A program made the translations under genes and the position numbers. Below, piece by piece: positions 40,265-61,120 of a stretch of 64,000 nt of DNA. Numbering within the stretch: the first letter of the stretch is position 1; every line of letters begins with the position of its first letter. The notes beneath the pieces were generated by a model, which searched no databases, was not told the origin of the DNA, and was given only the letters and a program-made list of their open reading frames with translations. The stretch comes from Deltaproteobacteria bacterium (GTDB taxonomy: Bacteria; Myxococcota; B64-G9): assembly GCA_019314375.1 (NCBI GenBank), contig JAFCZJ010000005.1, positions 6,910 to 70,909 on the forward strand, read 5' to 3'.

Positions 40265-40273
40265 TCGACTTGG

Positions 40274-41002: not shown

Positions 41003-41026
41003 GCTTTGTTTTCCTCCTCTCCTGTG

Positions 41027-41059: not shown

Positions 41060-41183
41060 TCTTCAACCACGCCGAACGCTGCCGGTATCAAATGAGGCTT
41101 CGGCCGACGTACTTGACCCGGCATGTCGGCCTGGATACTGTTTTGGAGAAGACGCGCTTTTGCCCCAAAAAGGACGACGGTCC

Positions 41184-41898: not shown

Positions 41899-41910
41899 GC
41901 TACTACTCCC

Positions 41911-43245: not shown

Positions 43246-43357
43246 CTGCGATGCGCGCCAGGCAAATGCGTCTTTTGTGGATCGCTTGATCGAAATTCCC
43301 ATGTATCATCGGCGATTTGGGTTTGACATGGATTGGGGCTCGGCATAATCTGCCGCC

Positions 43358-43813
43358 ATGGGCGCAGCCAGCAACAGGCGCCGTTTTTGGGCCCTTGTTT
43401 TCTGTCTTGTGGGCTTGGGTTCGGCCTGTGGAACCGTGGATCCGGGTGAGGTGACTTTGGCCCGACCACAACGGCTGCCGGACCCGGTTCGTTTTGCTTC
43501 TGCTGTTCATCCTGCCTTGACCCAGGATTCAGGCTGCGCCGCGACTGAATGCCATGCGCGTTCGGCTTTGTTTCCTTTGCATACGGCGGATGCCTTGCCT
43601 TCGGATAGCGAGATTGCGCATCCCTTGGATTTGCCCGAGCCCTTTCGCTCCGATTACTACACGGTCTTGTCGCGGGTGAACTTTGATAACCCGACGGCCA
43701 GTGTTTTGTTTCGCTGGGCGGATGGAGATGAGGCCGACCACCCTGGCGGTGATGCGCTCGACGCCGCAAGCCGACAGATGCTCTTGGATTGGCTGGCCGG
43801 GGTTGGGCCATGA
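43358..43813 (+). CDS. Lipoprotein with CxxxxCH motif (possible c-type cytochrome-like)
   Basis: LGSAC lipobox; GCAATECH; distal HPGG. Confidence 0.6.
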   Translation: MGAASNRRRFWALVFCLVGLGSACGTVDPGEVTLARPQRLPDPVRFASAVHPALTQDSGCAATECHARSALFPLHTADALPSDSEIAHPLDLPEPFRSDYYTVLSRVNFDNPTASVLFRWADGDEADHPGGDALDAASRQMLLDWLAGVGP

Positions 43814-44589
43814 ATTGGGCCGTAAGGTTGTTGCTGCTGGGGACCAGCCTGTTTTTGTGCTCAGGTCTTGTTCAAGCTGCTGATTACTCGGCCCGGGATG
43901 TGCAACTTCGGGTCATGGCCACTTCGGTCCCCGTCAGAGCAGGTCCCGGGGGCTCGTATCAGGAATTGGGCCGGGTTGGGAAGGGACAAGTTTATCAAGC
44001 CCTGGATCGAAGCCCGGATGGTGCCTGGTATCGCATTCGTTTGGCCCGAGGAGTCAGTGGATGGGTTTTGTCCGAGTTGGTCTGGCCCTTTGAGGTGGTG
44101 GACGAAGGCGCAACGGCTCGAGCCAGGGGTTGGATGCGGCAAAACGTCCTGGGAAAAAGCCCGATAGGTGACGGTGGTCTGCGGTTTGCTTTCGCGGGCG
44201 GTGCTTTGGATAGCGATGGTTATTTCGCTCTTCGACTGGGTTATGCCCCGAGTCGACATTATGCCTTCGAACTTTTGGCCAGTCAGTCTTCCGGGGGATT
44301 GGGCAGCTTAAGTCTCTATGGTGCTGAGTTGGTCGTGTCCTTCGGTCCCTGGCGCTCTTTGGTGCCCTTTGCAGCGGTGGGCGGCGGGGGCGCCACCGCC
44401 CTGCCCCACCGCGAAAGTCGCCTTTTCGCCGAGCGCACCCTGCCCATGCTCATGGCGGGCGGCGGTTTGATGTTGGCGCTAAAGGGTGGGTTCTCTTTGC
44501 GCTTCGACGCGCGACGAGTGATGGTTTTTTCCGCCGACGAGACCTGGGGCATGGTGGCTTTGCTGGGTGGTTTGATGTTGACGTATTGA
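43810..44589 (+). CDS. SH3b domain plus outer membrane beta-barrel
   Basis: VRAGPGGSYQELG..WYRIRL..GWV; C-terminal strands ending GGLMLTY. Confidence 0.8.
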   Translation: MNWAVRLLLLGTSLFLCSGLVQAADYSARDVQLRVMATSVPVRAGPGGSYQELGRVGKGQVYQALDRSPDGAWYRIRLARGVSGWVLSELVWPFEVVDEGATARARGWMRQNVLGKSPIGDGGLRFAFAGGALDSDGYFALRLGYAPSRHYAFELLASQSSGGLGSLSLYGAELVVSFGPWRSLVPFAAVGGGGATALPHRESRLFAERTLPMLMAGGGLMLALKGGFSLRFDARRVMVFSADETWGMVALLGGLMLTY

Positions 44590-44620
44590 ATCGGCCCGAA
44601 AGGGCTGCGAGGAGTCTGTT

Positions 44621-45277
44621 TTGTTGAGAATTGCCCGATGCGCGTTCCTGATGGTCCTTTGGCTGGCCTGCCTTGCGGTGCCGCCGGCGCAGGCCCGATG
44701 CCCAGAACCGCCCGAAACCGATCAAGGTGGACGGAAAGGTCTTGCCCAACGGCTTTTCGCCAAAAAACTGAGGCATGAGATTCATGTCTTCGGGGGGCTT
44801 TACGCCAGCGACTTGATGGGGACGGCACCCTATGCAGGGCTGAGTTACAGTTTTCATCTGAATGAGGATTTTGCTCTGGAAGCCGGCCTGGCTTGGGCCC
44901 ATTTTGCCTCCAGTCTTCAGGGCCCCGTGGAAGATTTCACAGGCTACACCTTGCTGGAAAGCCATCATGCGATGATGTATTCGGGCGCTCTGGTTTGGCA
45001 CCCCATTCACGGCAAGTTCATGCTCTTTCATCGATTCATTCCCCACTTTGACATCTACCTGAGCGCCGGTCTGGGCGTGACCGATAGCCGCAGCGCCAAA
45101 GGTTTGACTTACAATCTGGGTCTTGGCATCAAGATTTTCTCGACCTCCTGGATGTCCGTACGCGTCGATCTCAGGGATCACATTTATGTCCAACAGTTGA
45201 TGGCCTCCGAAACCATCACCAACAACATTTCGGTGACCCTGGGAGCCGGTTTTTGGATTCCATTCGAAAACACCTGA
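44621..45277 (+). CDS. GltA/B-like outer membrane beta-barrel
   Basis: WHPIHGK, HFDIYLSAGLG, GLGIKIF, RVDLRDH; GAGGAG RBS before TTG. Confidence 0.8.
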   Translation: MLRIARCAFLMVLWLACLAVPPAQARCPEPPETDQGGRKGLAQRLFAKKLRHEIHVFGGLYASDLMGTAPYAGLSYSFHLNEDFALEAGLAWAHFASSLQGPVEDFTGYTLLESHHAMMYSGALVWHPIHGKFMLFHRFIPHFDIYLSAGLGVTDSRSAKGLTYNLGLGIKIFSTSWMSVRVDLRDHIYVQQLMASETITNNISVTLGAGFWIPFENT

Positions 45278-46593
45278 GCTGGGTTTGGCTCTTATTCTTC
45301 TGTGCCGGACTGCTGCAAGGCGCTTGCACGGCTGAGCGCACCGCGGCGCGCGAGGTCCTGGCCGATCCGCTCATGCGCTTTGGCCCGGCACGGGCCATCG
45401 ATGCGCCGAACGCCCCCCCGGTCAGGGATGACTCAAGCTTGCCGGTGGACACGGTTCGCGCCTCGGTGGACATGAGCATGGAACCAGGCAGCGATGTGCA
45501 GGCGACTCACCTTGTGAGCGGGATAAGAACCGCCGTGGGCATCTGGGCGGGCTTGGGCTTAGAGGCCGGCTACGGCACCGACTTGGACAAGCTCAAGGTC
45601 TTCAAACGAGACGGTGTGGCGGATCCGCTTCCTTTGGATCGTCTGTCCCACGGACCGGACGCAGCCATCGTCTACGATGACGGCACCAGTGTTTTGCGCT
45701 TGGGATATCGCTATCGCCACGCCTGGGACGGCGACCTGCATGAGCCCTCCATCCGCGCCCGGACCGCCGTCTTGAGACGAGATACCGTGATCGAGGTCGA
45801 CTATCGCCACAAGCGTCAGGCTCTGCAAGTGGGCTCCGGGCATCACCCCGCTGAAGAGGCCGTGGATGCTAAAGCCCAATCGGATGCATTCTCCTTGGCC
45901 CTGGAGCAGGGCTGGGTCCCTGGCTGGAACCTGCGTTTGGAAGTGCTCGGCCGGGTCGAGTCGGGCTTCTTGCAAGACCCTTATCGCCTGGTGTCTCTTT
46001 GGAGTCATCGGGCCGAAGACCTGCTCGATGGGCCGGCCGACACGCCTCGCTCGGAGGCCGAACGGCATCCTGGCGAACGTGTTCGTTGGGCTTCCATGCT
46101 GCGTTTGCGCAAAGCCATCCCCGCATGGGGCAGCGTGCTCGAACTGGGCATCGGCAGGGGATCGGGCTCCTGGCGGGTTGAACAAAGTCGGGCCCTGATC
46201 GGCTGGTCACAAAGGATGGGAAACCATGTTCGCCTGGGACTGACCGGCGGGGCCTACCACCAAACCCGGGCGTCGTTTTACCGTGACGACTATCCGGCGG
46301 GTCCCCCAGGTGCCTACTGGAGCGCGGACCGAAGCCTGAGTTCTTACTGGGCCTGGTGGTCGAGCCTGGAACTCTGTCTGGGTTGGTTGGCCGGTGACGG
46401 GCGATTGATGGGCATGTTCAAGTACATCGATTTGCGCTTGGCCGGTCGCTTGCTGCGGGCGGATTACAATTTCGAGGGTCTGGATTCGGCCAACGGCTTT
46501 ACGGATTATGCCGATGAGGACTTCACCGACCGGCAGGTTTTCGACGGCGCTTGGGTTTTTGGCGGCTTGTTTGTTTTCGAAGCTGGTTTTTGA
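45253..46593 (+). CDS. Outer membrane beta-barrel, DUF3570-like
   Basis: GFLQDPYR, ERHPGERVR, YWSADRSLS, C-terminal F; start uncertain. Confidence 0.6.
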   Translation: MDSIRKHLSWVWLLFFCAGLLQGACTAERTAAREVLADPLMRFGPARAIDAPNAPPVRDDSSLPVDTVRASVDMSMEPGSDVQATHLVSGIRTAVGIWAGLGLEAGYGTDLDKLKVFKRDGVADPLPLDRLSHGPDAAIVYDDGTSVLRLGYRYRHAWDGDLHEPSIRARTAVLRRDTVIEVDYRHKRQALQVGSGHHPAEEAVDAKAQSDAFSLALEQGWVPGWNLRLEVLGRVESGFLQDPYRLVSLWSHRAEDLLDGPADTPRSEAERHPGERVRWASMLRLRKAIPAWGSVLELGIGRGSGSWRVEQSRALIGWSQRMGNHVRLGLTGGAYHQTRASFYRDDYPAGPPGAYWSADRSLSSYWAWWSSLELCLGWLAGDGRLMGMFKYIDLRLAGRLLRADYNFEGLDSANGFTDYADEDFTDRQVFDGAWVFGGLFVFEAGF

Positions 46594-47399
46594 TGAAGCG
46601 AGAGGGACACATGAAAAGGAAAGCTGGAAGCTGCCTTCCCAGATCTCCTACCTCAGCAGCCCGGGCTTCCAGATGTGCCTGTAATGCAAGGAGGAGCAGT
46701 AGATTCGGCCGGAGGCGTGGTCTCTCCACGTCGAGGACCGAATCTGCTGATTCGACGAAGCAGTACAGGTGCAGCTGGGAGATCCGGGGCCTTGCGGTCC
46801 TGTTGGCGCTATCCCTTTGCACGACGGCCACGGCGGGACCAAAAGACGGGGAAAAGACAGAATCGCCGACGGTCGCGGAGAAAAAGCCCATACAGCCCCT
46901 GGATCCCAAAGCCCTTCGCGAATTGGGTTTGGAGCACAGCCGCAGCCGGGATGCCCTGCTCGCGGCCGAGGCTCGACTGAGCCTTTTGGCCGAAAAACTC
47001 TTCGACAGTCGGCTGGAGGTGGTTTATCGGGGCGAGTTGGATTCTCCTTTCTCTCTGGCGCGGGTTGAGCTCTGGTTGGATGGCGGCTTGGCCTATCGCA
47101 AGGATTTCTCCAAAGCGCCAAGCGTTCAGATGCTCAAACTTTTTGACGGGTATTTGCCCCCAGGTTCTCATCTCTTGGAAGTGAAAGTCTTCGCGCATGG
47201 ACCGAAGGCCGCCAAGTCCGACCTGCCCGGTTACGTGGCCGGCAGCGGCCTGGTGGTTTTGCTTAAGGAAAAAACACAGGGCAGTTTGGTTTTCGAGGCC
47301 GAACAAGATGGAGAACCGGCCGAAGCTTCGGATGCGGAACCCGAAGCCAGTTGGGACGTGGAAATCGAAGCGCGGTTTGAGACCCAGGCAAAGGAGTGA
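46593..47399 (+). CDS. Exported hypothetical protein (coiled coil plus beta-sandwich)
   Basis: TGATG overlap with the upstream gene; hydrophobic signal GLAVLLALSLCTTATA lies after a palindrome-encoded segment; LFDGYLPPGSHLLEV. Confidence 0.6.
   Translation: MKREGHMKRKAGSCLPRSPTSAARASRCACNARRSSRFGRRRGLSTSRTESADSTKQYRCSWEIRGLAVLLALSLCTTATAGPKDGEKTESPTVAEKKPIQPLDPKALRELGLEHSRSRDALLAAEARLSLLAEKLFDSRLEVVYRGELDSPFSLARVELWLDGGLAYRKDFSKAPSVQMLKLFDGYLPPGSHLLEVKVFAHGPKAAKSDLPGYVAGSGLVVLLKEKTQGSLVFEAEQDGEPAEASDAEPEASWDVEIEARFETQAKE
46660..46787. repeat. Long imperfect palindromic element
   Basis: Nested arms TTCCAGATGTGCCTGTAATGC/GCAGTACAGGTGCAGCTGGGA, AGTAGATTCGG/CCGAATCTGCT and GGCGTGG/CCACGTC. Confidence 0.8.
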
Positions 47400-47409
47400 C
47401 GCGGAAAAG

Positions 47410-49269
47410 ATGAAGATTGGAAGATACAGCTTCTTGCTGATCGTGGCGCTGCTCTTGGATTACGGCGTGGCCGGTGCCCAGATGCCTACTTTCGGCTCCG
47501 CCGAGGCACAGCTTCGCGCCTGGTTGCTGCGCCAGCAAAGCGGCAAACAGCCAGCGACGCCCAAAGAGTTAGGCACCATTCTGCAGTCGCTTGAAATTGT
47601 CCGACTTGACGGAGGAGACAGGTCCGCGGCCGTCCGCTTCGGCGCTTTGGTGCTGGACCCCGCTTTTCAGAAACTGGCTGGGACGCCGGATTTTGATGCG
47701 GTTCGTTTTCATCTTGCGGCTTCCCTGGCCCGGCAAGGGGCCATGGGGCAGGCCCGGGAAATCTTGCTGGGCCTTTTGGCCGCCAAGCCGGCCTCTTCCA
47801 TGCGCGCGCCTGCTTGGCGAAAGCTTTCCGACATCAGCCTGGCAAGCGGGCAATTGGATGCCAGCCTGGGTGCCCTGGCTCGACTGGGAAGTCTCAACGA
47901 GCCGGATGCAATCAGCGAAGTGGCTTATCTCAAGGGCAAGGCTCTGGCCTTGATGGGCCATACTGATGCCGCCCTGAGCGCGCTCAAGGTGGTGGAGCGA
48001 AACAGCAGACGATTTGCCCAGGCGGTTTTCCTGACCGGCGCGCTCAAACTGGAATCCGGCCAGGCAGAGGCTGCCGAGGACGCTTTCTGTCGACTGGTGC
48101 ACCAGCCGGGCGATGGACGCTTTACTTTCTATTTTAACGAGATGACCGACGCGGTTTTGCAACAGACCTGGTTGGCCCTGGCCAGAATGCGACATGACGC
48201 CGGTGAATTCGGCCGTGCCTTGGAAACCTACGCACGGGTCCCCGAAGGTGGGTCGGCGGGTCGTCGCGCTCTTTATGAATCGAGTTGGACCTTGTTTCGT
48301 ATGGGCCGCATGCGTGAAGTCAGGCTCCGCCTGCGGCGTTTACTGAGCGGCTCATTGCTTCCTTCGGAATCCCCTTCCGCTCGTCTGTTGTTGGCTTATG
48401 CAAGCTTGGGTGATTGCATGTTCGATGAATCTCGAAGCTTGCTCGACAGACTCGACAAAGACCTGGTTGGGGTTTCAGAAACCGCCGACGACCTCCTGGG
48501 TGCCGGACTAAACGAGCCCTGGCCCTTGCCGAGCAAAGCCCGACATTGGATGCCGCTTGAGGCAAGTCAACGCCGATTGCAGGCCTTGGCCGACAAGATC
48601 CGCGATGCACTGATCCGGAGTCGCTTGGCCCAGGGGGCCTTGGCGAATTTGGCCCAGTCCGAACTGGAAACGTCCGTGCAACTTCCAGGGCAGATCAAAG
48701 CAGCGGCGCTTACCAGGGATCTGGCCAAGGCGCGCTCATTGCAGCAGCGCATCGCAAATCTTCGAGCACAGATCGGTTCGGCCAAGGGCGAGCAAAACAA
48801 ACGTCAGCGATTGATTGAGCTCAGCCGCCAGGTTGACGAGGCCGCCCACCGGGCCCGGCAGGCCTTGAACAAGCTCAGGGGTTTGCAGGTGGGCAGTTTG
48901 CCGACGGGATTCGTCAAAGGCGCCGACCTGCCCGCGGCATATCTGCAGGCGGAGATGACGGCTTTAGCCAAATTGGGGGGAGACCTGGTGAAACAGCTGC
49001 AGCGTGTCCAGTCTCTTGGAAAAGACGACATTCGGCACCGCAGTTTTGAATTGTCCACCAAGGTTAAAGGATGGACCCGCCAGGCTGCCCTGGGGCGCAT
49101 TGACGCAATCTTGGGTGAAAAGCAGGCCCTGGAGCTCGAGGTGCAGAACTTGGCTTTGGGCCGCTATCCCTTGAGCTTGCTTCGCGAGCTTATCGAGGCG
49201 GGGCAATTGGATGCCGATTTGGAGTACTGGCCTTACGACGGAGAAGAGTGGCCGGATGAGTTTGAGTAA
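47410..49269 (+). CDS. GltC-like TPR protein (second cluster)
   Basis: Signal peptide, TPRs, C-terminal EYWPYDGEEWPDE matching the GltC tail of 22471-24069. Confidence 0.75.
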   Translation: MKIGRYSFLLIVALLLDYGVAGAQMPTFGSAEAQLRAWLLRQQSGKQPATPKELGTILQSLEIVRLDGGDRSAAVRFGALVLDPAFQKLAGTPDFDAVRFHLAASLARQGAMGQAREILLGLLAAKPASSMRAPAWRKLSDISLASGQLDASLGALARLGSLNEPDAISEVAYLKGKALALMGHTDAALSALKVVERNSRRFAQAVFLTGALKLESGQAEAAEDAFCRLVHQPGDGRFTFYFNEMTDAVLQQTWLALARMRHDAGEFGRALETYARVPEGGSAGRRALYESSWTLFRMGRMREVRLRLRRLLSGSLLPSESPSARLLLAYASLGDCMFDESRSLLDRLDKDLVGVSETADDLLGAGLNEPWPLPSKARHWMPLEASQRRLQALADKIRDALIRSRLAQGALANLAQSELETSVQLPGQIKAAALTRDLAKARSLQQRIANLRAQIGSAKGEQNKRQRLIELSRQVDEAAHRARQALNKLRGLQVGSLPTGFVKGADLPAAYLQAEMTALAKLGGDLVKQLQRVQSLGKDDIRHRSFELSTKVKGWTRQAALGRIDAILGEKQALELEVQNLALGRYPLSLLRELIEAGQLDADLEYWPYDGEEWPDEFE

Positions 49270-52200
49270 AATACAGCACCTGTTTATGGCTTTTGGGCTC
49301 TTGGCCCTTTGGCTTTGCAGCCAGCCGGCTTTGGCGGCTGAGGCATCAGCCCAGCCCCGCTGTGCTCCTCAGCCTGGGGAGCCCGGCTGGCTTGAGTTCC
49401 AGTTGCAGCGAAAAGAAGGGTCCTTGGCGCAGCGGCGAAACGAAGCCATCCGTTTGCTGAAGCAGTTTTTGGCCGAACACCCCAAGGCCTCCCAGCGAGC
49501 CGATGCCCTCTATCGCCTGGCCGAGCTGAGTTGGGAACAAGCCGAGGCCGATCTTTTGGTCGCCATGCGGGAATACGAACGCAGGCTCGAGGAGTTCAGG
49601 CTCGGTCAACTCAAGAAACGTCCGCCCGAACCGAGTATCCAGCTCGATGCCTCCATTCTTATTTATGAAGAGATGTTGGAAAAGCACCCGAACTTCGATC
49701 GATGCGACATGGTGCTGTATCTTTACGGTTTCGCTTTGAATGAGCAAGGAGACGAAGACACGGCCTTGGCCATCTATCGTTCTTTGCTCAAGCGCTTTCC
49801 GCACAGTACCTTCGCGGCGGACGCCAATCTGGCCATCGCCGAGTTTCACTTCGCAAAGGCCCAGTACAAACCTGCCCTGAAGGCTTATGCCCGTGTTTTG
49901 GCCTTTCCCAAATCGGTGCTTTTGGATCTGGCGCTCTACAAAACGGCCTGGTGTCATTTCAAATTGGGCCGAGCCAAGGATGCCGCCAAATTTTTCAAGC
50001 GGGTATTGGACCGCTCGCGCAAACAGAAAACAGAAGGCAACAAGCAGGCTTCGCCCGGCGGCGATTTGGAACGGGAAGCATTAGAAGATCTGGCTTTGAC
50101 TTTCAGCGAATACGGCGGCGCCAAAGAAGCCTACCTATTTATGAAGCAGGTGGGCGGCGAGCAGTACTCGATCCGGGTTTTGGAAAACCTGGGCGAGGTC
50201 TTTTTTCGCCAGGCCCGATACGACAAGGCCATCGACAGCTATCGCATGTTGGTTCAGCGTTTTCCCTTGGCCAAAGACAGCCCGGGGCACCAGCAACAAA
50301 TCGCTTTGGCCTTTGAAAAGGAAGGCAAGCTGGAAGCCTCTTTGACCGAGCGCAATCGGCTGGCGGACAGCTATGGTCCCGGGTCTTCTTGGGCCAAGCA
50401 TCACGCGGCCAAGCCCGAGGTCCAAAAGATGGGTTTGGGTCTCGCGGAAAACGCCTTGCGTTACGTCGCGATGGCTCGACACAAACAAGCCCAGAAAGGC
50501 ACAAGCGACAAGGCCTACAAGAAGGCGGAGCAAGCCTATCGAAAATACCTGGAGCGATTCGGCAAAACCGAACAAGCACCCCGGATTCACTTTTATCTCG
50601 GCGAAGTTTTGTTCAAGCTCAAGCGATTCGATAAGGCGGCTGAGCATTACAGCAAAGCGGTTCACTCCGGCAAAGAACAAGCGCTGAAACAAGAAGCGGC
50701 TTATGCCGCGATTTTGGCCTGGGACAAACAAAGAGACTTACAGCCCAAGAATGAAAAGCCCCCGGCCAAACCTCAGGACTTGAGTCCGGCTGAACAGGGA
50801 TTTTTGCGCACGGTGAATGAATTCACCAAGCTTGCGCCCGACGATCCCAAGCTTGCCCAACTTCGATTTGAAGTGGGTCGAATCCATCATCTTCGGGGAC
50901 AATTTCCCAGGGCGGCCAAGCATCTTTTGGCTTTGGTTGCGGCCAAGCCCAAGGGCGAATATTCGGAAGCGGCCGCGGACCTGGCCCTGGATTGTTATGC
51001 CAAGGCCGGCCTTTGGACCGATGTAGAACGCGAGGCTCGTCGTTTTGACAAGGAAGGATGGTATCGAGGCAAGGACTTAGGCGGTCTACTCAAGGACATC
51101 ATGGCCGGGGCTATTTTTCAGCATGCCGCGTCGAGGTCCAAAGCGGACGAGCATGGCAAGGCCGCGAAAGAGTACCTGCGCATGGCGCAGGAGTTTCCAA
51201 AAAATGAACGCGCTTCCAAGGCCCTGTACAATGCGGCGGTGGCCCAGGAAAAGGCGGGAGAGAAAGCCCAGGCGGTCAAGCTGTATCAGCGAGTCATCGC
51301 CGAATACCCCACTCGCGCGGCGGATGCCTTGTTCGTCATCGCCGGCATTCATGAACGGCAGTATGACTACCAACAGGCATCGGATAGTTTTGCGAAATTC
51401 AGCAAGCAATTCGACTCGGACAAGCGAGCGCAGGACGCCTTGTTGCAAGCGGCCTTGCTCCTTGGCGCTCTCGGACAATTCGACCGGGAAGCGGCCCTTT
51501 TGCAGGATTTCACCAAACGATTTGCGGCCCATGCCAAAGCGCCAGAAGCCCTATTTCGGGCGGGTTTGGCCCAGGAAAAAGCCAAAAAATTCAAGAAAGC
51601 TGAAAAACTCTTTTTTGTCTATCAACGAAAACATGGTCTCAAGCTGGGGCATGCTCGAGAGGCCGGCCTTCATCTCGGACGCTGTCTTTTGGCGCAAAAA
51701 CGTACGCGCTCGGCAAAAAAGTGGTTTGAACGATGCGGAAAATTCAAAGCCAGGCGCTCGCCTGCCGGCTCGGAGCTTGCCGCCGCTGCTGAATGTCGCT
51801 TCCTCTTGGGTGAGTTGGTTTTTGAGGAATACGAAAAGATTGTTTTGCGACCGCCCATGCGCAGGCTGGCCAAATTGTTGAACCACAAGGCCACCATGCT
51901 GAAGAAAGCGGAGGCCTTATTCGCCAAGGTGGTGGAGGCGGGGCATCCCGAATGGGCCTCGGCGGCTCTTTACCGCATCGGTGACATGTACTCCAAGTTT
52001 GCTCGCGCCATCTACGACGCGCCTTTGCCCAAGGGTTTGAGCGAGCGTGAATTGGAGATCTACCGACAAGAACTACAGACCTTGGCCTTCCCCATCGAAG
52101 ACAAGGCGCTCAACGCTTTCGTCATCAGCCTGGGGGTCGCGCAAAAGCAACGCTACTTCAGCACCTGGAGCAACAAAACCTTGCAGATGTTACGCAAGCT

Positions 52201-52342
52201 GGATCCGGCTCAATACCCGAAAGAAGAAGAGATCCGTCCGGGTACGGGTTGGGCTGACTCTTTCACCCGTTTCCCCCTGAATCTCAAGCGCATCAAGGTG
52301 CCCCAAAAGCCCGCCAAGAAGAAAAAAGGGGGCGCTTCATGA
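49256..52342 (+). CDS. GltD-like large TPR protein (second cluster)
   Basis: ALYRLAELSW, LALYKTAWC, LEREALEDL and PEWASAALYRIG parallel motifs in 18843-22457. Confidence 0.8.
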   Translation: MSLSKIQHLFMAFGLLALWLCSQPALAAEASAQPRCAPQPGEPGWLEFQLQRKEGSLAQRRNEAIRLLKQFLAEHPKASQRADALYRLAELSWEQAEADLLVAMREYERRLEEFRLGQLKKRPPEPSIQLDASILIYEEMLEKHPNFDRCDMVLYLYGFALNEQGDEDTALAIYRSLLKRFPHSTFAADANLAIAEFHFAKAQYKPALKAYARVLAFPKSVLLDLALYKTAWCHFKLGRAKDAAKFFKRVLDRSRKQKTEGNKQASPGGDLEREALEDLALTFSEYGGAKEAYLFMKQVGGEQYSIRVLENLGEVFFRQARYDKAIDSYRMLVQRFPLAKDSPGHQQQIALAFEKEGKLEASLTERNRLADSYGPGSSWAKHHAAKPEVQKMGLGLAENALRYVAMARHKQAQKGTSDKAYKKAEQAYRKYLERFGKTEQAPRIHFYLGEVLFKLKRFDKAAEHYSKAVHSGKEQALKQEAAYAAILAWDKQRDLQPKNEKPPAKPQDLSPAEQGFLRTVNEFTKLAPDDPKLAQLRFEVGRIHHLRGQFPRAAKHLLALVAAKPKGEYSEAAADLALDCYAKAGLWTDVEREARRFDKEGWYRGKDLGGLLKDIMAGAIFQHAASRSKADEHGKAAKEYLRMAQEFPKNERASKALYNAAVAQEKAGEKAQAVKLYQRVIAEYPTRAADALFVIAGIHERQYDYQQASDSFAKFSKQFDSDKRAQDALLQAALLLGALGQFDREAALLQDFTKRFAAHAKAPEALFRAGLAQEKAKKFKKAEKLFFVYQRKHGLKLGHAREAGLHLGRCLLAQKRTRSAKKWFERCGKFKARRSPAGSELAAAAECRFLLGELVFEEYEKIVLRPPMRRLAKLLNHKATMLKKAEALFAKVVEAGHPEWASAALYRIGDMYSKFARAIYDAPLPKGLSERELEIYRQELQTLAFPIEDKALNAFVISLGVAQKQRYFSTWSNKTLQMLRKLDPAQYPKEEEIRPGTGWADSFTRFPLNLKRIKVPQKPAKKKKGGAS

Positions 52343-53472
52343 AGCGAATATCTTGGATGCTTGGTTTCTTGATGCTGCTTTTGTTTGTTGCGGCTTGCAC
52401 CACTACCAAAGCCCCGATCCGCAAAGGGCCTGATCCCCTGATGCAGCGACGCAAGGCTGTCTTGGCATACAACCGAGCGGTCAAGACCCTCGGCTCCAAA
52501 CGTGCGAACTACCACACAGCGGTCCAGGATTTGGAAAAGGCCTTGGCATTGGATCCAAAGTTTTACGAGGCTCATTACAACCTGGGGCTGCTCATGGCTC
52601 GCGGCAACGATCCAAAGCGCTCCGAGCAGGAATACAAAAAGGCCCTGAAGCTCAAACCAGGAGACCGCAAGACCCTCTTCAATCTAACCGAGCTCTTCGT
52701 ATCACTAAAACGCTACGATGCGGCCGTGGAGGTCTTGGAAGCCTTGGTGGAAGACAACCCGGGCGATCAAGAAGCCCGAAACAACCTGGCCGTCATCTAC
52801 CGCCTAAAAGGCGACCACAAGAAAGCCACCGAACAGGCCCGCTACGTGCTCGATCGCAATCCCAAGCAAGTCATGGCCTACAACAATCTGGCCACCATCT
52901 TCAGCGAGCAAGGTCGTCACGAAATGGCTGAGGACTTGTTCCGTCGCGCCCTGGCCTTGGAGCCTGACAACCCCCGAGTGCTGAACAACCTGGGCCTGGC
53001 ACGCCTGAAGCAGGGCAAGGTCCAAGAAGGCTTGGAAATGTTCGAAAAGGCCATCAAGGCCAACCCCCGCCTGACCGAAGCCGGCCTGAACGCCGCGGTC
53101 GTCTTCATGGCCTCCGGCGCTTACAACCGCGCTCGTTTGGCTTATCGCAAGGTAGTCCGCTCCGTCCCCGGATTCTTGCCCGCTTTGGTGGGTCAGGCTG
53201 TGGCGGAACGGGCCATGGGACGCTTCAACCAGGCGGAAAAAGCCTATCAGCAAATCTTAGGCCTCGATGCAGACAACACCGAAAGCCTCTTCAACCTGGG
53301 CTTGCTCTACATGCGCCACAAAGAAAAACCAGCCTGGGCCTGCGAGGCCTTCAAGAAAGCCCTGAACTCCAAAAGAATCAACAAAGAACAAGTCAAACAA
53401 GCCAAGGGTTTCTTAGAAGACCTGCGCTTGAACCACCCAAAAAAATGCGGCAAAGGGAGCAAAAGCCCATGA
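52339..53472 (+). CDS. GltE-like TPR lipoprotein (second cluster)
   Basis: FVAAC lipobox, TPR array, ATGA overlaps on both sides. Confidence 0.8.
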   Translation: MKRISWMLGFLMLLLFVAACTTTKAPIRKGPDPLMQRRKAVLAYNRAVKTLGSKRANYHTAVQDLEKALALDPKFYEAHYNLGLLMARGNDPKRSEQEYKKALKLKPGDRKTLFNLTELFVSLKRYDAAVEVLEALVEDNPGDQEARNNLAVIYRLKGDHKKATEQARYVLDRNPKQVMAYNNLATIFSEQGRHEMAEDLFRRALALEPDNPRVLNNLGLARLKQGKVQEGLEMFEKAIKANPRLTEAGLNAAVVFMASGAYNRARLAYRKVVRSVPGFLPALVGQAVAERAMGRFNQAEKAYQQILGLDADNTESLFNLGLLYMRHKEKPAWACEAFKKALNSKRINKEQVKQAKGFLEDLRLNHPKKCGKGSKSP

Positions 53473-53741
53473 GGTTTATCAGCCGATTGTTGCTAGCCTG
53501 CCTGGTCTTCGCAAGCCTCATCTTCGCCCCCGATTACGCCCAGGCCAAGACCAAAAAGCCAAAGGCAGGCTCCGTCCGAGTCTACCGCTTCGACAACCTG
53601 GACGTAGAGGGCAACGTAAAAACCCCCCAACTCATGTACTTCCTCAAAAGAATCCGCAAACGATTTCGTTCCTTCCGCCTACCCAAACAAAATTTCTCCA
53701 ATAAAATCCTGAAAGCCAAGGAAGAAGCCGACTTTCTCTAG
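53469..53741 (+). CDS. GltF-like small exported protein
   Basis: Signal peptide; VYRFDNLDVEGNVKTPQLMY resembles the GltF IDFSDVTITGELTKP motif. Confidence 0.7.
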   Translation: MRFISRLLLACLVFASLIFAPDYAQAKTKKPKAGSVRVYRFDNLDVEGNVKTPQLMYFLKRIRKRFRSFRLPKQNFSNKILKAKEEADFL

Positions 53742-53836
53742 GCTTGGGCTGATCTACGACTAAGAAAGAATACTTTATCAACGGAAAAGATATCTTTCTT
53801 TGAGGCCAGCCAAGAGAAGCAAAGGGCCTACTCAAA

Positions 53837-53895
53837 GGCACCCCGTTCCCCAACTATTCGCCTGGCACCCCGTTCTAGGGGCACCCCGTTCTAGG
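53837..53895. repeat. Short direct repeats GGCACCCCGTTC(TAGG) x3
   Basis: Copies at 53837, 53864 and 53880, at the edge of the inserted hydrolase gene. Confidence 0.8.
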
Positions 53896-53921
53896 GTTTT
53901 AGGCTCAGATGGTAACCAGGC

Positions 53922-55157
53922 TTAGAAATCGGGGAAGGTTTCCAGCTCTGCAAGGATGGTTTTGGCTAGGGAATAGAGCCCCTGAGTGTTCGCTGTGTTG
54001 GACAGTAACACCACCACGGCAGGGGGATTCAGGGTGAATACCACCTGGCTGCTGAAGCCTGGAACACCCCCGTTCTTGGAGTAGTAAGCCTTGCCTTCGG
54101 GATCCTCGATGTTAATAAGGAGGCCGGTTTTGGCGTCGACCCCGTTGGGGCTGTCTCGGTATGGGGTTATCACCAGGGTCCAGGCCGGGTCTGTTCCGGA
54201 GAGCGCACCCTCGAAGAAGCGCAACACCTCATCTCCTGTGGAACGTAGCATGCCGCCACCATGTAAAGGCTCACCGATGTCCACGGGGGGCGCTTCCGCA
54301 CCGCTGCTGTACCCCATTGCTTTGCGCAGGAGCTGGCTGGTGTCGAGTACAGTAGTAGTGTCAACAAGACCAAAGGGTTCGCAGATCTCACGATGCACCA
54401 GCGCATCGAAAGTGACCTCTCCAGAGGCCGTGACTGCAATGTAGCCCAAGATGCCGGAGCCAAGGTTAGAGTACGCATAGGTCGTTCCAGGCTCGTGTAA
54501 AAGCGTGGCGGTAGAAAGGTACTCTTCAAGCAAGGCCACAGTGTAGTTTCGGGCTGGGTTGATATCCCCAGGGTAAAGCACATTGTCAGGAAAGTTTTCC
54601 AAACCTGAGGTGTGGGTCGCGAGATCCAGCAACGAGATGGAGCGCTGGGTCCCGGTGGGAACGTTCAGACCGAAAGTATCCTCCAGACTGTCGGTGAGCG
54701 CTACCTCATTCCGGTCGATACCCCGGGCCAGGAGGTATCCGGAGTAAACCTTGGTCACTGAGCCGATCTCGTAAATAGAGTCGGCTCCTGGTGGGGTACT
54801 TCCTCTTAGCGTAGTCGCACCGAAGCCGGTCACATATCGAGAGCTAGGCGTAGCCACACCTACCACAAGGCCAATAGCCTTGCCCTGCGAGTAGTCTGGA
54901 TTCACAGAGCTTGCGGTGAGTTCTTGGAGCAGGCAGTGGATCGGTGGACCATCCTGGCATTCTGCGCCACCATCGTGGTCCGCATCCAGTCCGGCATCTT
55001 GCGCAGCATCCAGACCGGCATCTTGCGCAGCATCCAGTCCGGCATCTTGCGCAGCATCCAGTCCGGCATCAAAAGTAGCCGAAGAATCTGAGCACCCGGT
55101 CAGTATCGAGCTCAACACCAACACCATCACCAAAATAGAGAGTATGGGTGTCTTCAT
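53922..55157 (-). CDS. Serine hydrolase, beta-lactamase class C/D-Ala-D-Ala peptidase family lipoprotein
   Basis: LTGC lipobox; SVTK, LATHTSG, YSN and KNG motifs. Confidence 0.9.
   Translation of the reverse strand: MKTPILSILVMVLVLSSILTGCSDSSATFDAGLDAAQDAGLDAAQDAGLDAAQDAGLDADHDGGAECQDGPPIHCLLQELTASSVNPDYSQGKAIGLVVGVATPSSRYVTGFGATTLRGSTPPGADSIYEIGSVTKVYSGYLLARGIDRNEVALTDSLEDTFGLNVPTGTQRSISLLDLATHTSGLENFPDNVLYPGDINPARNYTVALLEEYLSTATLLHEPGTTYAYSNLGSGILGYIAVTASGEVTFDALVHREICEPFGLVDTTTVLDTSQLLRKAMGYSSGAEAPPVDIGEPLHGGGMLRSTGDEVLRFFEGALSGTDPAWTLVITPYRDSPNGVDAKTGLLINIEDPEGKAYYSKNGGVPGFSSQVVFTLNPPAVVVLLSNTANTQGLYSLAKTILAELETFPDF
54982..55070. repeat. 24-nt coding repeat (DAGLDAAQ)
   Basis: GCATCCAG(T/A)CCGGCATCTTGCGCA x about 3.7. 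Confidence 0.85.
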
Positions 55158-55364
55158 GCCGATTTCATTTTTCCAGGCCGCAAGGTTTTCAGGTCTAGAT
55201 TTTCCAACTCGAACTCGCATTTGTCGCATATCGAACCTGCTCATACTGTACCGCACCCGGTTCTTTGGACACAAGTAAGCACCAGGCCGCCTCAGTCAAG
55301 GCCAGGTTGATCGATGGTATGCAGATGGTGTTTGTGTTTCAAGGCCCGGGAACCTTATGACGGC

Positions 55365-55393
55365 TTGACACGTCAAAGACATTACACGAGAAT
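55365..55393 (+). promoter_or_regulatory. Putative sigma70 promoter for the distal gltG-like genes
   Basis: TTGACA, 17 nt spacer, GAGAAT, 12 nt before ATG 55406. Confidence 0.5.
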
Positions 55394-55405
55394 CCGGACC
55401 AAGAC

Positions 55406-56803
55406 ATGGCAAGCTCGACTCAAAGCATCTTGAACTGTTCGATCATCTGGCAAAATACCATGATGGAGGAACGAGCTTTCCCCGCCGGACGACGGATTAC
55501 CGTCGGCGAAGATCATCGAGCTACCTTCACCTTGCCCGCCAACCTGGGTAAAAAGCGCTGCTTATTCAGGCCCAAACCGAACTCTTGTGAGTTGTGGTTG
55601 CAGGAAGGGATGTTGGGTCGGGTTCAGATCAAGGGCCGCACCTGGGAGGTCGATGAGTTGTTGACGGACCCTCAGGGTTTGGCGGATCGAAAAGGCCAGT
55701 CGATAGTCTATGAGCTTGAGCCCGGCGATGGCGGCGTGCTTGTGTTCGGCTCGGTGGGCCTGGCGTTTCAATTGGGGAAGGCGGCGCCCGCCCTGCCCCC
55801 CTCCAGTGTTGGGCAAATCTTGGGGGCGGACAAGACGGTCACCCGTGCTTTTGGGGCCAGCGTCGCGCTTATGGTGATGCTCATGCTGGTGTCTCGGCTT
55901 TTGGGCGCGCCGGGAACGGCTTTTTCGATTGAGCAGTTGCCTGATCGATTTGTGTCTTTTGTGGTGGACGATCCGAGTTTGGTCAAGGATTTCAAAAAAG
56001 ACCTGAAGGAATTAGAGAAAAAACAGGCTGAAGAAATCAAGAAACGTCTGAAACCCAAGCGCAGCAGGCCCGAGGAACGCCGGCCCGAGAAGAAGGCGGT
56101 GGAATCGCCGGCGGATGATGCGGAAACCAAGCGCATCCGGGAAAAAGTGGCCAAAAAAGGCATGGTGGCTGAGTTATCCAAGGCCCGCAGGCGCAACAGC
56201 GCATTGGCGCATGTGCTCAACGACGGTGGTCTGGGCATGAGCATCGATTCCGCCATGTCGGCCATGCGCCACGGCAAGGCACGCGCCCGCTTGTTGACCT
56301 CCAAGGGTGCGGGCGGCATCGTCGTCCCCAGCTTGGTCTCGCGGCGCGGCAGCGAAGAGGCCCTGGGCGAAGGCATCTCCGACGCGGGCCCCAAGACGGG
56401 CCGAACCGCTCGTCGCGTGGCGAGCGGCAGCCGTTTGGCCGAGAGGGCCGAGGCCAGTTTGTCTTTGCCTTCAGCTGCCTCCACCACGGTCACCGGCGGC
56501 ACCCTGTCGAAGAAGGCCATCGCCAAGGTCATCATGCGCAACAAAGGTGCCATCAAGTACTGCTATGAGTCCCAGCTCACACGCTTCCCCACCCTGCGAG
56601 GCAAGGTGGTTGTGGATTTCATCATCGAAATGAACGGCAGCGTACGCACGGCCAAGGTTTCCAGCAACAAGCTCAACAAGGCTGCGGCCAAGGGAAAAGT
56701 GGCAAGCTGCCTCATGCGATTTGTTCGACGATGGCAGTTTCCCAAGCCGCAAGGCGGCAAGGTGCGCGTCATTTACCCTTTCACCTTTGGTCGAAAAAGA
56801 TGA
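55406..56803 (+). CDS. GltG-like protein with AgmX/PglI-type TonB-C domain (second cluster)
   Basis: Single TM; IKYCYESQLTRFPTLRGKV..WQFPKPQGGKVRVIYPFTF. Confidence 0.82.
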   Translation: MASSTQSILNCSIIWQNTMMEERAFPAGRRITVGEDHRATFTLPANLGKKRCLFRPKPNSCELWLQEGMLGRVQIKGRTWEVDELLTDPQGLADRKGQSIVYELEPGDGGVLVFGSVGLAFQLGKAAPALPPSSVGQILGADKTVTRAFGASVALMVMLMLVSRLLGAPGTAFSIEQLPDRFVSFVVDDPSLVKDFKKDLKELEKKQAEEIKKRLKPKRSRPEERRPEKKAVESPADDAETKRIREKVAKKGMVAELSKARRRNSALAHVLNDGGLGMSIDSAMSAMRHGKARARLLTSKGAGGIVVPSLVSRRGSEEALGEGISDAGPKTGRTARRVASGSRLAERAEASLSLPSAASTTVTGGTLSKKAIAKVIMRNKGAIKYCYESQLTRFPTLRGKVVVDFIIEMNGSVRTAKVSSNKLNKAAAKGKVASCLMRFVRRWQFPKPQGGKVRVIYPFTFGRKR

Positions 56804-57435
56804 AACGACGCAGCCTGAGAACACTTCTGTGCATGGGCTTGATGAGCATCGCCCTTTATGCTTGCGAGGCCGAGCGCTATTTCGGTCCCTATGATGTAGC
56901 GGTGCCGACGGCCTTCGGCGAGAGCTCGGCGGCGCGGACCTTCGAGATGCCCCTGGACGCCACGGATGTGTCCGAGTTGGAAGAATTGGATCTTTGCCTT
57001 GAGTTTGAGCTCGAGCGAGAGCTGCCCTGCATCTGCGATTACCCTGGAATCAGTCTGGATGAGCAAGACACCCGCATCGACTATCGACTGGCCCATGAAG
57101 GGGGGCAAGAGCTCAACGCCCTGGTGTGGATAGGGGTCGACAAGCGCCCGCAGGATTCTGACCCGGATTTACTCCCCGATCTTCCCTGGATCGAGGTCTT
57201 AGGAGAACACCTGCACCGGCTGAACCCTGGCCAAATTGTGGAGACCAGCTTTTTGGAAGAGGAAATAGCGGACATGGAATTGGCCTGGGCGATCGAACGC
57301 CACAGTGTCTGTGGCGAGGACGCGAACGCCTGGCCCGCGCCCATCAGTCTCTTTATCGGCGTCAGTCTGCCGGGAGAAGAGCCGGACGCGGCGCTCTCCC
57401 TGGAGTGGGTTGTGCGTGTGCGGGATGGGGGTTGA
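56800..57435 (+). CDS. Acidic hypothetical lipoprotein
   Basis: ALYAC lipobox; ATGA overlap. Confidence 0.65.
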   Translation: MKRRSLRTLLCMGLMSIALYACEAERYFGPYDVAVPTAFGESSAARTFEMPLDATDVSELEELDLCLEFELERELPCICDYPGISLDEQDTRIDYRLAHEGGQELNALVWIGVDKRPQDSDPDLLPDLPWIEVLGEHLHRLNPGQIVETSFLEEEIADMELAWAIERHSVCGEDANAWPAPISLFIGVSLPGEEPDAALSLEWVVRVRDGG

Positions 57436-57436
57436 G

Positions 57437-58015
57437 ATGCGTGGGTCCTTTTTTCTCGGCCTTTTGTTCTGCATGTGTCTGACGGGCGCTCCGGCTTCAG
57501 CCGAAGAGGCCTGTCCCAAGCCGAAGGATTCGATTCCTCGGGGGATGATCGTCAGCACCGGCGTCGGTCCTTCCTTCTGGTTGGGTGACGTGGGCTCGGA
57601 CAGTCAAGTCGGCATGAATTACCATTTCAATTTGGGCTATGAGTTATTGCCATACCTGGGCTTCGAGGCAAGCTGGACCACGGGCAGTCACAACACGGAT
57701 CAGCCCCATCCGCCGGCCGAAGGCAGCTACTCCACCTACGCGCTGCAAGGTCTCTTGCGCGTCAACCTGCCCCTGGGGCGTTTCGATCTCTTCGCTCACG
57801 GCGGCGCCGGCCTGATGTGGGCCCAGCCCGACATCCTGGTTCGGGTCGAAGATTTCAACTCGGATCTCCACCTGGCCTGGTCCGCCGACTTAGGCTTCGC
57901 CTGGCACAGCTCCCGCCGTCGAATCTGGCTGGGCGCACAAGCCGGCGTACTGGGCGGCGTAGATTTCCCAGGCTACCTCTTAAGCGCCTCGGTCGTGATT
58001 GGACTGAGTCTGTAG
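57437..58015 (+). CDS. Small outer membrane beta-barrel (GltH/CglE-like position)
   Basis: Signal peptide; strands NLGYEL, FAHGGAG, terminal IGLSL. Confidence 0.65.
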   Translation: MRGSFFLGLLFCMCLTGAPASAEEACPKPKDSIPRGMIVSTGVGPSFWLGDVGSDSQVGMNYHFNLGYELLPYLGFEASWTTGSHNTDQPHPPAEGSYSTYALQGLLRVNLPLGRFDLFAHGGAGLMWAQPDILVRVEDFNSDLHLAWSADLGFAWHSSRRRIWLGAQAGVLGGVDFPGYLLSASVVIGLSL

Positions 58016-58039
58016 ATCTTCTAAAAGGCGGGGCTTCTA
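57982..58039. repeat. 58-bp direct repeat, left copy
   Basis: AAGCGCCTCGGTCGTGATTGGACTGAGTCTGTAGATCTTCTAAAAGGCGGGGCTTCTA; one mismatch to 59680-59737. Confidence 0.95.
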
Positions 58040-59008: not shown

Positions 59009-59014
59009 GAGGGG

Positions 59015-59608
59015 TCACTCGCCTCGCGTGTTGCGCAGGCAATCTGTTACCAGGGCCAGGGTCTTCTTGGTCCCGTAATGTTTTGCCATGTCGAAAAGAC
59101 GCTCCCTGTTCCATCGTTCCTGCTTCAAGGTAGCGACCAGTCCGTTTTGGAGTTCGGTCAGCGAGACGCCGGCCATGTCGTGATGCTGCAAGAGATCGAT
59201 GATGAACCACTCCGGTGAGGGGTTTTCAGGATAGAGCACCCTGCGTAACAGAAAACGCCGGCCGTCGAAAAAAAACTCTCCACTGCGTTTTTGATTGTAG
59301 ACCAGTGTCGATGAAAACATGGCCGTGGCCCCAAGCCCAAGGGCATTCCACTTAGGCGGCCCGGTGATCAGGAAGGGGCTGCCGTCCAAAAAGGCGCGCA
59401 TGAGTTCGGTTTCGCTTGGAGGTGCCTGACCGAAACGGCTTTCGACCGGAGCATAGTATATGCCGTGGGCAGCGTGGATGAGTCTGCCCTCGCGCACAAG
59501 GCGCTTGGCGAGGCGGGCTGGGTTGGCGCTGAAGCGGCGAAGATTGCGGGTTCGACGGGTTCGATAGGCTCGGCCCGGTTCAAATTCTGGTTCTGCTGCT
59601 CGGCTCAT
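59015..59608 (-). CDS. AbiEi-like antitoxin/transcriptional regulator
   Basis: RLVREGRLIHAAHGIYY wHTH-like; WNALGLG; directly upstream of the AbiEii gene. Confidence 0.75.
   Translation of the reverse strand: MSRAAEPEFEPGRAYRTRRTRNLRRFSANPARLAKRLVREGRLIHAAHGIYYAPVESRFGQAPPSETELMRAFLDGSPFLITGPPKWNALGLGATAMFSSTLVYNQKRSGEFFFDGRRFLLRRVLYPENPSPEWFIIDLLQHHDMAGVSLTELQNGLVATLKQERWNRERLFDMAKHYGTKKTLALVTDCLRNTRGE

Positions 59609-59734: not shown

Positions 59735-59737
<3 letters not shown>
59680..59737. repeat. 58-bp direct repeat, right copy
   Basis: Matches 57982-58039 at 57 of 58 positions; contains the eno stop codon. Confidence 0.95.

Positions 59738-61120
<1,383 letters not shown>

Follow-up and report, generated by a model that had tools for sequence, protein, structure and literature searches.

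Does the second Glt-like gene cluster on a contig from an uncultured member of the Myxococcota encode one more copy of a known trans-envelope machine, or a system in its own right? The DNA in question, here called the window, is a stretch of 64,000 nucleotides (nt) covering positions 6910-70909 of contig C139 of a 6.66-Mb metagenome-assembled genome (MAG) with 370 contigs and 58% G+C. Myxococcus xanthus carries four types of Glt-like system, namely Glt (G1 + G2), Nfs (G3, nfsA-H), G4 (MXAN_1919-1923) and G5 (MXAN_1327-1331), of which G4 and G5 are listed as being of unknown function (Luciano et al., 2011, PMC3169522). Inspection of open reading frames (ORFs) identified 12 plus-strand ORFs, g1 to g12, lying nearly end to end at 43358-58015, and their starts were refined by eye using signal peptides and lipoboxes. 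An earlier note on this DNA had read these genes as a tightly coupled run encoding a second, divergent Glt-like machine with novel accessory subunits. The listed genes are real, since all were found on the plus strand with their coordinates upheld, and family models match most of them. The run itself, however, is better described as two units, g1-g9 and g10-g12, each closely packed, because a minus-strand beta-lactamase-family gene separates g9 from g10; this gene and a repeat between g4 and g5 interrupt the run and went unmentioned in the note. On balance, we think it rather probable that these genes specify a Glt/Nfs-like trans-envelope complex, as a separate lineage restricted to one family.

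The core of the cluster consists of g3, g6-g10 and g12. g3 (44621-45277) encodes an outer-membrane barrel of the GltA/GltB/NfsA/NfsB type, with a match to TIGR04565 (OMP_myx_plus) at 2e-32 and 112 bits (cut-off 60), and its profile hidden Markov model (HMM) matches barrels of Glt/Nfs-type loci. The GltC-like periplasmic helical/tetratricopeptide-repeat (TPR) protein g6 (47410-49269) is matched by the GltC model NF033756 at 1e-13, its best HMM matches being the C-like proteins of G4-type loci and GltC proteins. g7 (49256-52342) is a long GltD-like TPR protein that matches TPR families in Pfam, as well as TIGR02795 (YbgF/CpoB-like TPR repeats) at 1.5e-46, and falls in the GltD homologue set, while g8 (52339-53472) is a GltE-like TPR lipoprotein (NF033758, 5e-35, 121 bits). 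The small exported protein g9 (53469-53741) resembles GltF: the CglF model NF033764 matches at 0.004, and the g9 profile HMM matches the F position in G4-type (5.5e-8) and Nfs-type loci. CglE, CglF and CglC are names that we take to be alternatives for GltH, GltF and GltK. g10 (55406-56803) is a GltG-like inner-membrane protein with one transmembrane segment, a charged linker and a TonB-C-like AgmX/PglI domain (NF033768, 2e-28, 98 bits, cut-off 40); the GltG model NF033760 matches it at 8e-43, with only model positions 204-645 aligned. Pfam detected no FHA domain in g10, whereas the G protein of the window's first Glt-like operon has one. Finally, g12 (57437-58015) encodes a small GltH (CglE)-like outer-membrane barrel, for which the match to the CglE model NF033755 is weak (2e-9, 37 bits, cut-off 70); OMP_b-brl matches at 2e-8, and the g12 profile HMM matches, at 7.8e-6, the ORF that takes the place of GltH in the genome's own Glt orthologue cluster (C137:20059-20673). 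No counterparts of GltI, GltJ or GltK were detected in the cluster with NCBIfam models, GltJ matches arising only through the shared C-terminal domain.

Around this core lie five accessory genes. g1 (43358-43813) encodes a small lipoprotein with a lipobox and the motif CAATECH, without a Pfam or NCBIfam family. g2 (43810-44589) is an exported protein with an SH3b domain (Pfam SH3_3, 7e-11, at residues 46-97) followed by a Gly-rich part of alternating pattern that ends in an aromatic residue and matches TIGR04565 at only 6e-4; this part is presumed from its sequence to be a small outer-membrane barrel, and g2 is conserved at 13 loci with 51-64% identity. The lipoprotein g4 (45253-46593) is DUF3570-like (PF12094, 2e-7, 30.6 bits, gathering score 25), the match covering only model positions 235-371 of 427. 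Its AF2 model, built from 14 sequences (pLDDT, the predicted local distance difference test score, 77.9; pTM, the predicted template-modelling score, 0.77), has a 16-strand beta-barrel after the lipoprotein N-terminus. Foldseek matched this model to generic barrels only, i.e., porins, OccD, FadL, AlgE, BcsC (TM-score 0.43) and PelB (0.43/0.48), and therefore no substrate can be named. g11 (56800-57435) is an acidic CXC lipoprotein without a family: the alignment of 7 orthologues shows an invariant PCxCD, two further invariant Cys residues and an EHxH motif, with CXC in 7/7 and an isoelectric point of 4.15-4.68 in all seven (~4.2 in the window copy). No relatives of g11 were found in Pfam, in NCBIfam, in a PDB profile search or in an HMM search of Glt-like loci, and PDB profile searches with g1, g5 and g11 gave nothing under E 0.18. 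An Ig-like or fn3-like assignment of g11 was rejected and no family could be named, the ESM Atlas TM-scores of 0.31-0.55 coming from a model with a pLDDT of 0.50.

The remaining accessory gene, g5 (~46797-47399, exact start uncertain), encodes an exported protein with a conserved helix and a beta domain and has no named family; its ORF appears longer than the gene because the repeat lies in the g4/g5 gap. The g5 profile HMM matches the ORF that immediately precedes the GltC-like gene at all three G4-type loci (G009 at 7e-9, G005 at 2e-6 and G004 at 1.6e-5) and the equivalent ORF of a Polyangiaceae locus, L024, at 1.6e-8, with no match in the 6 Glt/Nfs-type loci examined; in the ESM Atlas, look-alikes came from unnamed Myxococcota clusters only. 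These g5-like genes lie at L046:6495-7475 (in the Myxococcus-like genome, G009:C49), L050:6044-7057 and L053:16009-16995, and may represent, judging by sequence, a G4 component so far unrecognised. Complex prediction for g5 with g6 gave an interface score (ipSAE) of 0.81 (runs 0.79, 0.82 and 0.81), compared with 0.44 for the best of three controls; partner pLDDT was 70-71, and at least 78% of contacts were common to the runs. The prediction passes the mark applied in such cases, which is reached by 116/157 solved complexes and 2/215 mismatched pairs, a calibration that is rough for our own alignments. Since no solved relative of g5 was found, recall of a solved complex is unlikely. In the prediction, the conserved g5 helix (residues 32-68 of the 200-residue form) lies in a groove of the GltC-like g6, which supports binding of g5 to g6 as modelled.

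An alternative to a single system is that two unrelated units merely adjoin, i.e., an outer-membrane set, g1-g4, and a G4-like core, g5-g10, functionally uncoupled from each other. Consistent with this alternative, the g5-like-C-D-E-F-G core occurs in L024, the nearest relative, and in the G4-type clusters with no detectable g11 or g12 downstream, and g1, g2, g4 and g11 have no HMM relatives at the L024, G4-type or Glt/Nfs-type loci examined. To follow the cluster across species-representative genomes, we used an alignment of 25 g7 relatives, which yielded 15 orthologous loci plus L024 (32% identity). Within the g7 orthologue group, identity is 42-59% and all members are MAGs labelled Myxococcota, Myxococcales or Deltaproteobacteria, and the next relatives fall to 31%. 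The order g1-g2-g3-g4-g5-g6-g7-g8-g9 is identical at 13/14 loci with any left flank, over 12-13 genera, the exception being L011; the fifteenth locus, L023, begins inside g7 and hence has no left flank. Identity of the loci to the window is 36-47% for g1, 45-56% for g4, 40-62% for g5, 49-61% for g7 and 36-51% for g11. On the right side, 8 of the 13 loci whose flank measures 4.7 kb or more contain g10, and g11-g12 follow g10 at 6/6 loci that have sequence past it (L013 and L020 end at g10, and L014 and L016 are too short on this side to score g10).

The distribution among genomes agrees with this picture. Our sample comprised 400 other genomes across the phylum, 17 of them from the cluster's own family (12 further genera) and 383 from 35 other families; the 17 family genomes overlap with the 15-locus set, so that the two counts are not independent. 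g4 occurs as a single copy in 17/17 family genomes and in 0/383 elsewhere at E <=1e-5, and the g1 profile matches strongly (E <=1e-27) in 16/17 family genomes and only weakly (E >=9e-10) in 20/383 others. A single contig carries g1, g4 and the D gene at constant spacing in 13/17 family genomes, contig breaks or a missed query accounting for the rest, and g1 and g4 were never found apart from the D gene. BLAST found no paralogues of g1, g2, g4, g5, g9, g11 or g12 in the MAG itself. Neighbouring genes overlap or lie at most 31 nt apart, except at the g4/g5 gap (~200 nt, with the repeat) and the g9/g10 gap (1.66 kb), and the g3 stop and g4 start codons overlap. This coupling across the proposed boundary, the fixed order and the constant company of the D gene argue against two uncoupled units, an explanation to which we give little credence. 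Conservation of the accessory genes with the core, on which the earlier note had staked its proposal, was thus borne out. Its view that these genes are novel holds for g1, g2, g4 and g11, which are family-specific, but not for g3 (GltA/B-type), g12 (GltH-like) or g5, with its relatives at G4-type loci and L024.

We next consider whether the cluster is orthologous to a known type. The 9-Mb genome of a Myxococcus-like bacterium in the sample, G009, provided a reference: its GltG match of 1033 bits is over the cut-off, and the gene sizes and spacing of its four paralogous clusters fit the Glt, Nfs, G4 and G5 types. The best BLAST match of g7 in G009 is the G4-type D protein, with 368-378 bits vs 140-283 for the other three types. 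Glt-like clusters in the MAG itself, besides the one under study, are found on C137 (the Glt orthologue, GltG 599 bits), in the window's first operon, and on C338 (G4-like), C258, C231 and C222. Phylogenetic trees were built from D proteins (44 rows, 994 columns, quick LG+G4, rooted on six gammaproteobacterial homologues) and G proteins (26 rows, quick LG+G4, unrooted). In the D tree, the G4-type clade has a Shimodaira-Hasegawa-like approximate likelihood-ratio test (SH-aLRT) support of 97 and the clade of cluster orthologues one of 100; the latter pairs with L024, P0030 and P0031 at 99. In the G tree, the cluster and L024 group at 95, and a split of 94 separates them, together with the G4 type, from Glt, Nfs and G5. 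Both trees place the first operon in the Nfs-type clade, C137 in the Glt clade and the C338 cluster with G4. No closer orthologue of the L024 D protein was found in the 400-genome sample, the best match being the family's own cluster (32-35%). On these trees, the cluster and one Polyangiaceae locus appear as a deep lineage of their own, without an orthologue among the four types of M. xanthus, and both trees are compatible with a ladder of G4, then cluster/L024, then Glt/Nfs/G5. The D and G trees and, as to orthology, BLAST thus support the claim that the window holds, besides its Nfs-type first operon, another and strongly diverged Glt-like cluster without orthology to the Glt, Nfs, G4 or G5 cluster of G009. 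No description of this cluster type was found in open-access papers and preprints. Beside this comparison, we observed that the first operon (12120-25747, minus strand) contains tandem GltG-like genes, one with an FHA domain (14912-16843) and one without (12863-14143), which are mutually closest and are followed by an LCCL-domain gene.

Since the g5 HMM matches upstream of their GltC-like genes, the order g5-like, C, D, E, F and short FHA-less G is common to the cluster, G4 and L024. Judged by gene content, the architecture is thus a hybrid, in which a G4-like core is joined to the Glt/Nfs-like barrels g3 and g12 and to the family-specific g1, g2, g4 and g11, and this agrees with the intermediate position in the trees. 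At L024, the sequence downstream of the G gene showed neither g11 nor g12 nor a barrel family, and on the upstream side the locus is truncated by the end of its contig.

The cluster has homologues for each of GltA/B, C, D, E, F, G and H and could therefore also be read as duplicating Agl-Glt in function, as a second apparatus for gliding motility. However, the genome has a far better Glt orthologue on C137 (GltG 599 vs 146 bits), which lies in the Glt clade of both trees; g10 lacks an FHA domain; and counterparts of GltI, GltJ and GltK were not detected. A peptidoglycan-binding SH3b domain on the platform would also fit poorly with a travelling complex, and in M. xanthus no paralogous cluster is reported to replace Glt (PMC3169522). 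We consider a duplicate gliding apparatus quite improbable.

Several observations weigh against a Glt/Nfs-type complex of separate lineage as we propose it. NCBIfam equivalog scores are far under their cut-offs (GltC 50.9/450, GltE 121.2/225, GltG 146.9/650, CglE 37.3/70 and CglF 17.1/90 bits), so that the names GltC, E, F, G and H express resemblance only for the cluster genes. g2 was not accepted as a GltA/B homologue, the hhalign probability of g2 vs g3 being 3%. Both trees are quick searches with composition warnings, and the D tree joins the cluster + L024 pair to the Glt/Nfs/G5 group at an SH-aLRT of only 92, and in the approximately unbiased (AU) test a joint clade of cluster-type and G4 D proteins was not rejected (p 0.226). 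g10-g12 were not found near g1-g9 at 5/13 right-flanked loci (L011, L017, L018, L021 and L023), and the two units g1-g9 and g10-g12 can thus separate. Moreover, foreign genes tend to collect at the F/G junction: at the 9 loci showing both g9 and g10, the window included, the two genes are adjacent in 4 and separated by an insertion in 5, namely a TonB-dependent receptor in three, transposases in one (L013) and the beta-lactamase-family gene in the window. The flanks offer no conserved cargo gene, whether for a polysaccharide, an adhesin or anything else; what is kept there is enolase, a housekeeping gene, and, at four loci, a kinase-PEGA gene. Lastly, no MotA/ExbB/TolQ-family gene was found on the cluster's 86-kb contig.

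A motor could nevertheless act in trans. The genome has 6 MotA/ExbB-family genes, all on other contigs: C366 carries Tol-Pal, C206 TonB-ExbB-ExbD, the Glt-like clusters of C338 and C258 one gene each, C38 a pair, and C131 (3343-5180, plus strand) a stand-alone TolQ-TolR-TolR set in the AglR-AglQ-AglS arrangement that adjoins no Glt-like gene. In M. xanthus, Glt and Nfs are powered by one and the same motor, AglRQS (PMC12288465, PMC3858216), and AglR contacts GltG (PMC3169522). Since Glt and Nfs share AglRQS in this way, we infer by analogy that the cluster is energised by a stator encoded elsewhere.

We propose that the gene products assemble into one complex along the following lines. At the inner membrane, the FHA-less, GltG-like g10, with its transmembrane segment and TonB-C-like domain, would act with the small GltF-like g9 and would couple the complex to a proton-motive TolQ-TolR-TolR (AglRQS-like) stator. 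In the periplasm, the GltD-like g7 and the GltE-like lipoprotein g8 would provide a TPR scaffold and the groove of g6 would hold the g5 helix, such that g6-g8 together with g5 would span the compartment. The outer membrane would carry a platform of g3, the SH3b-bearing g2, g4 and g12, joined by the lipoproteins g1 and g11. The SH3b domain of g2 suggests that this platform is tied to peptidoglycan, a cell-wall link drawn from this one SH3_3 domain. Powered in this manner, the complex might move or remodel an outer-membrane or surface cargo.

The accessory genes invite a different interpretation, which the earlier note had touched on in mentioning redox, namely that the cluster is an extracytoplasmic redox, haem or iron module in which g1 is a haem lipoprotein, g4 a DUF3570-type barrel and g11 a CXC redox lipoprotein, served by the TonB-like g10 and, in some relatives, by a TonB-dependent receptor. 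The alignment of 13 g1 orthologues shows a shared lipobox Cys, the pattern hP.L...C-x4-CH, an invariant Tyr and Ser, an HPG motif with an invariant His, and a C-terminal Trp. CX4CH, a known but rarer haem c motif, occurs in 13/13 orthologues and CXXCH in 0/13. Pfam searches of these 13 gave weak matches to Cytochrome_CBB3 in two (best E 0.028) and to Cytochrom_C in one. The only relative of g1 within the genome (HMM E 0.0067) is a lipoprotein at G000:C231:52012-52932 (minus strand) with two g1-type domains in tandem, each copy having a canonical CXXCH and an HP motif, with a Cys-rich stretch and a DAG-rich linker between them (Cytochrome_CBB3, 0.0034), and a cytochrome c assembly (maturation) gene is present in the genome. 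The pattern of motifs in g1 and the order of helices in its AF2 model (pLDDT 75.6) possibly recall a small cytochrome c domain. However, none of the g1 matches to cytochrome families reaches a curated cut-off; the VIA matches of the model to FoxE (Z 3.7), PccH (2.8) and a dihaem cytochrome (2.4) are within noise among unrelated rows; the best Z of the wide VIA search was 3.8; and Foldseek with this model gave no match at E <=0.001. A single haem, moreover, could not bridge the outer membrane.

A similar balance applies to g4, g11 and the receptor. DUF3570 proteins are extracytoplasmic, are flavinylated by ApbE at two [S/T]GA[S/T] motifs (PMC8238504), and are encoded with genes for DUF4266 (a small CXC protein), thioredoxin-like proteins and DsbD (PMC8238504; 10.1101/2023.06.07.544157), a setting that the CXC of g11 brings to mind. 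The [ST]GA[ST] motif, however, occurs in 0/14 g4 orthologues, and ApbE, thioredoxin-like, DsbD and DUF4266 families are absent from the Pfam and NCBIfam matches of the cluster genes. The TonB-dependent receptors of the F/G slot lie on the minus strand (L009:16873-19173, L020:14695-17178 and L022:14687-16987) and are orthologous, the L009 and L022 copies being 52% identical, a divergence about that of the cluster genes; yet the slot lacks a receptor at 6/9 loci, including the window. The genome has a receptor of its own at the end of contig C141, which is 38-42% identical to those in the slot. The redox hint draws on the g1 and g11 motifs and is weakened by the absence from g4 of the flavinylation motifs that define redox function in its family; it is weak overall, and we regard a redox, haem or iron module as unlikely.

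Insertions in the window raise the further question of whether the cluster is a decaying, non-functional paralogue. A dispersed hairpin repeat (46670-46790, no strand assigned) lies in the g4/g5 gap, outside the machine proper. This repeat, ~120-150 nt long, has 17 other copies on 16 other contigs with 72-98% identity, a predicted fold of -85.4 kcal/mol (z -8.0) and no Rfam match; it is palindromic and looks like a miniature inverted-repeat transposable element (MITE) or a repetitive extragenic palindromic (REP) element. Rfam gave no match at E <=0.1 anywhere in 41000-59500. The F/G slot of the window holds a gene for a beta-lactamase/AmpH-family lipoprotein (53922-55157, minus strand; PF00144, 3e-41), a serine hydrolase with a DAGLDAAQ tandem repeat past its lipobox. 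After g12 comes an AbiE pair (58037-59608, minus strand), made up of an AbiEii-family nucleotidyltransferase toxin gene and a downstream 197-residue ORF without a family match. At another locus (L011:1-7292), g1-g5 and most of g6 have been lost to a defence island of a type I restriction-modification system, a RhuM-family gene and an AAA/DUF4143 gene, leaving only the last ~60-75 residues of g6. On the other hand, 12/12 ORFs of the window are intact, the same starts and motifs recur in intact ORFs across loci, Cys, His and lipobox positions are invariant, and the cluster is kept in single copy in 17/17 family genomes. Decay is accordingly a most implausible explanation, and a conserved Glt/Nfs-type complex remains the reading that we prefer.

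The flanks give further context for these insertions. At the 6 loci showing g12, a convergent enolase gene follows it immediately; enolase was identified by Pfam at the window and L010 only, and elsewhere by BLAST clustering. In the window it lies at 59735-61105 (minus strand), past the AbiE pair inserted after g12. A divergent Ser/Thr kinase-PEGA gene and a 275-residue gene are found directly upstream of g1 at L014, L015, L020 and L022. Since their orthologues in the window lie at 29117-30706 and 28284-29117, respectively, ~12.6 kb (30707-43357) have been inserted there. This segment contains an alpha-amylase gene, a MYXO-CTERM protein gene, a DUF2247 gene and the lipoprotein ORF g0 (41911-43245). 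g0 was rejected as a cluster member, and neither it nor the beta-lactamase-family and AbiEii genes have counterparts at any related locus. A promoter-like sequence, TTGACA-17-GAGAAT (55365-55393, plus strand), lies ahead of g10; because a scan of the region found 3 such sites vs 4.3 expected from shuffles, i.e., no enrichment, this site is suggestive by position only. Among sequencing runs, none of RNA was listed for this DNA, and DNA runs gave only small shares (0.05-0.15).

A separate lineage of this kind would have wider meaning. In the scenario put forward by Luciano et al. (2011, PMC3169522), an older core complex gave rise to the gliding and sporulation machines by gaining outer-membrane parts; the occurrence of a G4-like core with Glt/Nfs-like barrels in a third deep lineage bears directly on it. 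For G4 of M. xanthus, the cluster provides a lead, namely that the GltC-like protein is predicted to bind a small exported protein whose gene lies just upstream of its own. In the uncultured Myxococcota family itself, g1, g2, g4 and g11 are the only handles on the role of the machine. A bolder idea, which we would class as a long shot, is that of a Glt-type machine driven by the proton-motive force, its outer-membrane platform incorporating a dedicated 16-strand barrel and a haem lipoprotein, that couples mechanical work across the envelope to surface redox or to haem/iron handling in sediment-dwelling uncultured Myxococcota and that is, in addition, a living intermediate between the barrel-less G4-type core and full Glt/Nfs. 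If true, this intermediate would show how the gliding apparatus gained its outer-membrane module.

Comparison with known systems helps to define what is particular to the cluster. It follows the same logic as Tol-Pal: the inner-membrane protein is TolA/TonB-like, g7 carries YbgF/CpoB-like TPR repeats, and one outer-membrane component has a domain for binding peptidoglycan. However, a complete Tol-Pal operon is encoded separately on C366, the cluster lacks TolB and Pal homologues, and its binder is of the SH3b rather than the OmpA-like type. With the DUF3570/ApbE flavinylation system (Meheust et al., 2021, PMC8238504), it shares a g4 score over the PF12094 gathering threshold and a small exported CXC protein, g11; it differs from that system in the partial model match of g4, the lack of both motifs and of the partner families, and the fact that g11 is not a DUF4266 match. 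The G4 cluster (MXAN_1919-1923) and its counterpart on C338 have the same order of g5-like, C-like, D, E, F and short FHA-less G genes, whereas the cluster forms a separate clade in the free D and G trees and has GltA/B- and GltH-type barrels, which the G4-type stretches examined lack; also, the G4-like copy on C338 has its own TolQ gene (C338:35080-35433) and the cluster does not. Nfs and Glt of M. xanthus share with it the one-strand order of barrels, C, D, E, F, G and H, as in nfsA-H (PMC3169522), the GltA/B-type and GltH-like barrels, the TPR scaffold, the TonB-C-like inner-membrane protein and the lack of a motor in cis, Nfs and Glt using AglRQS in trans. Compared with both, the D and G proteins of the cluster fall outside the Nfs and Glt clades with equivalog scores far under cut-off, its G protein is free of an FHA domain, and its gene set is enlarged by a g5-like partner of the GltC-like protein and by g1, g2 with its SH3b domain, g4 and g11.

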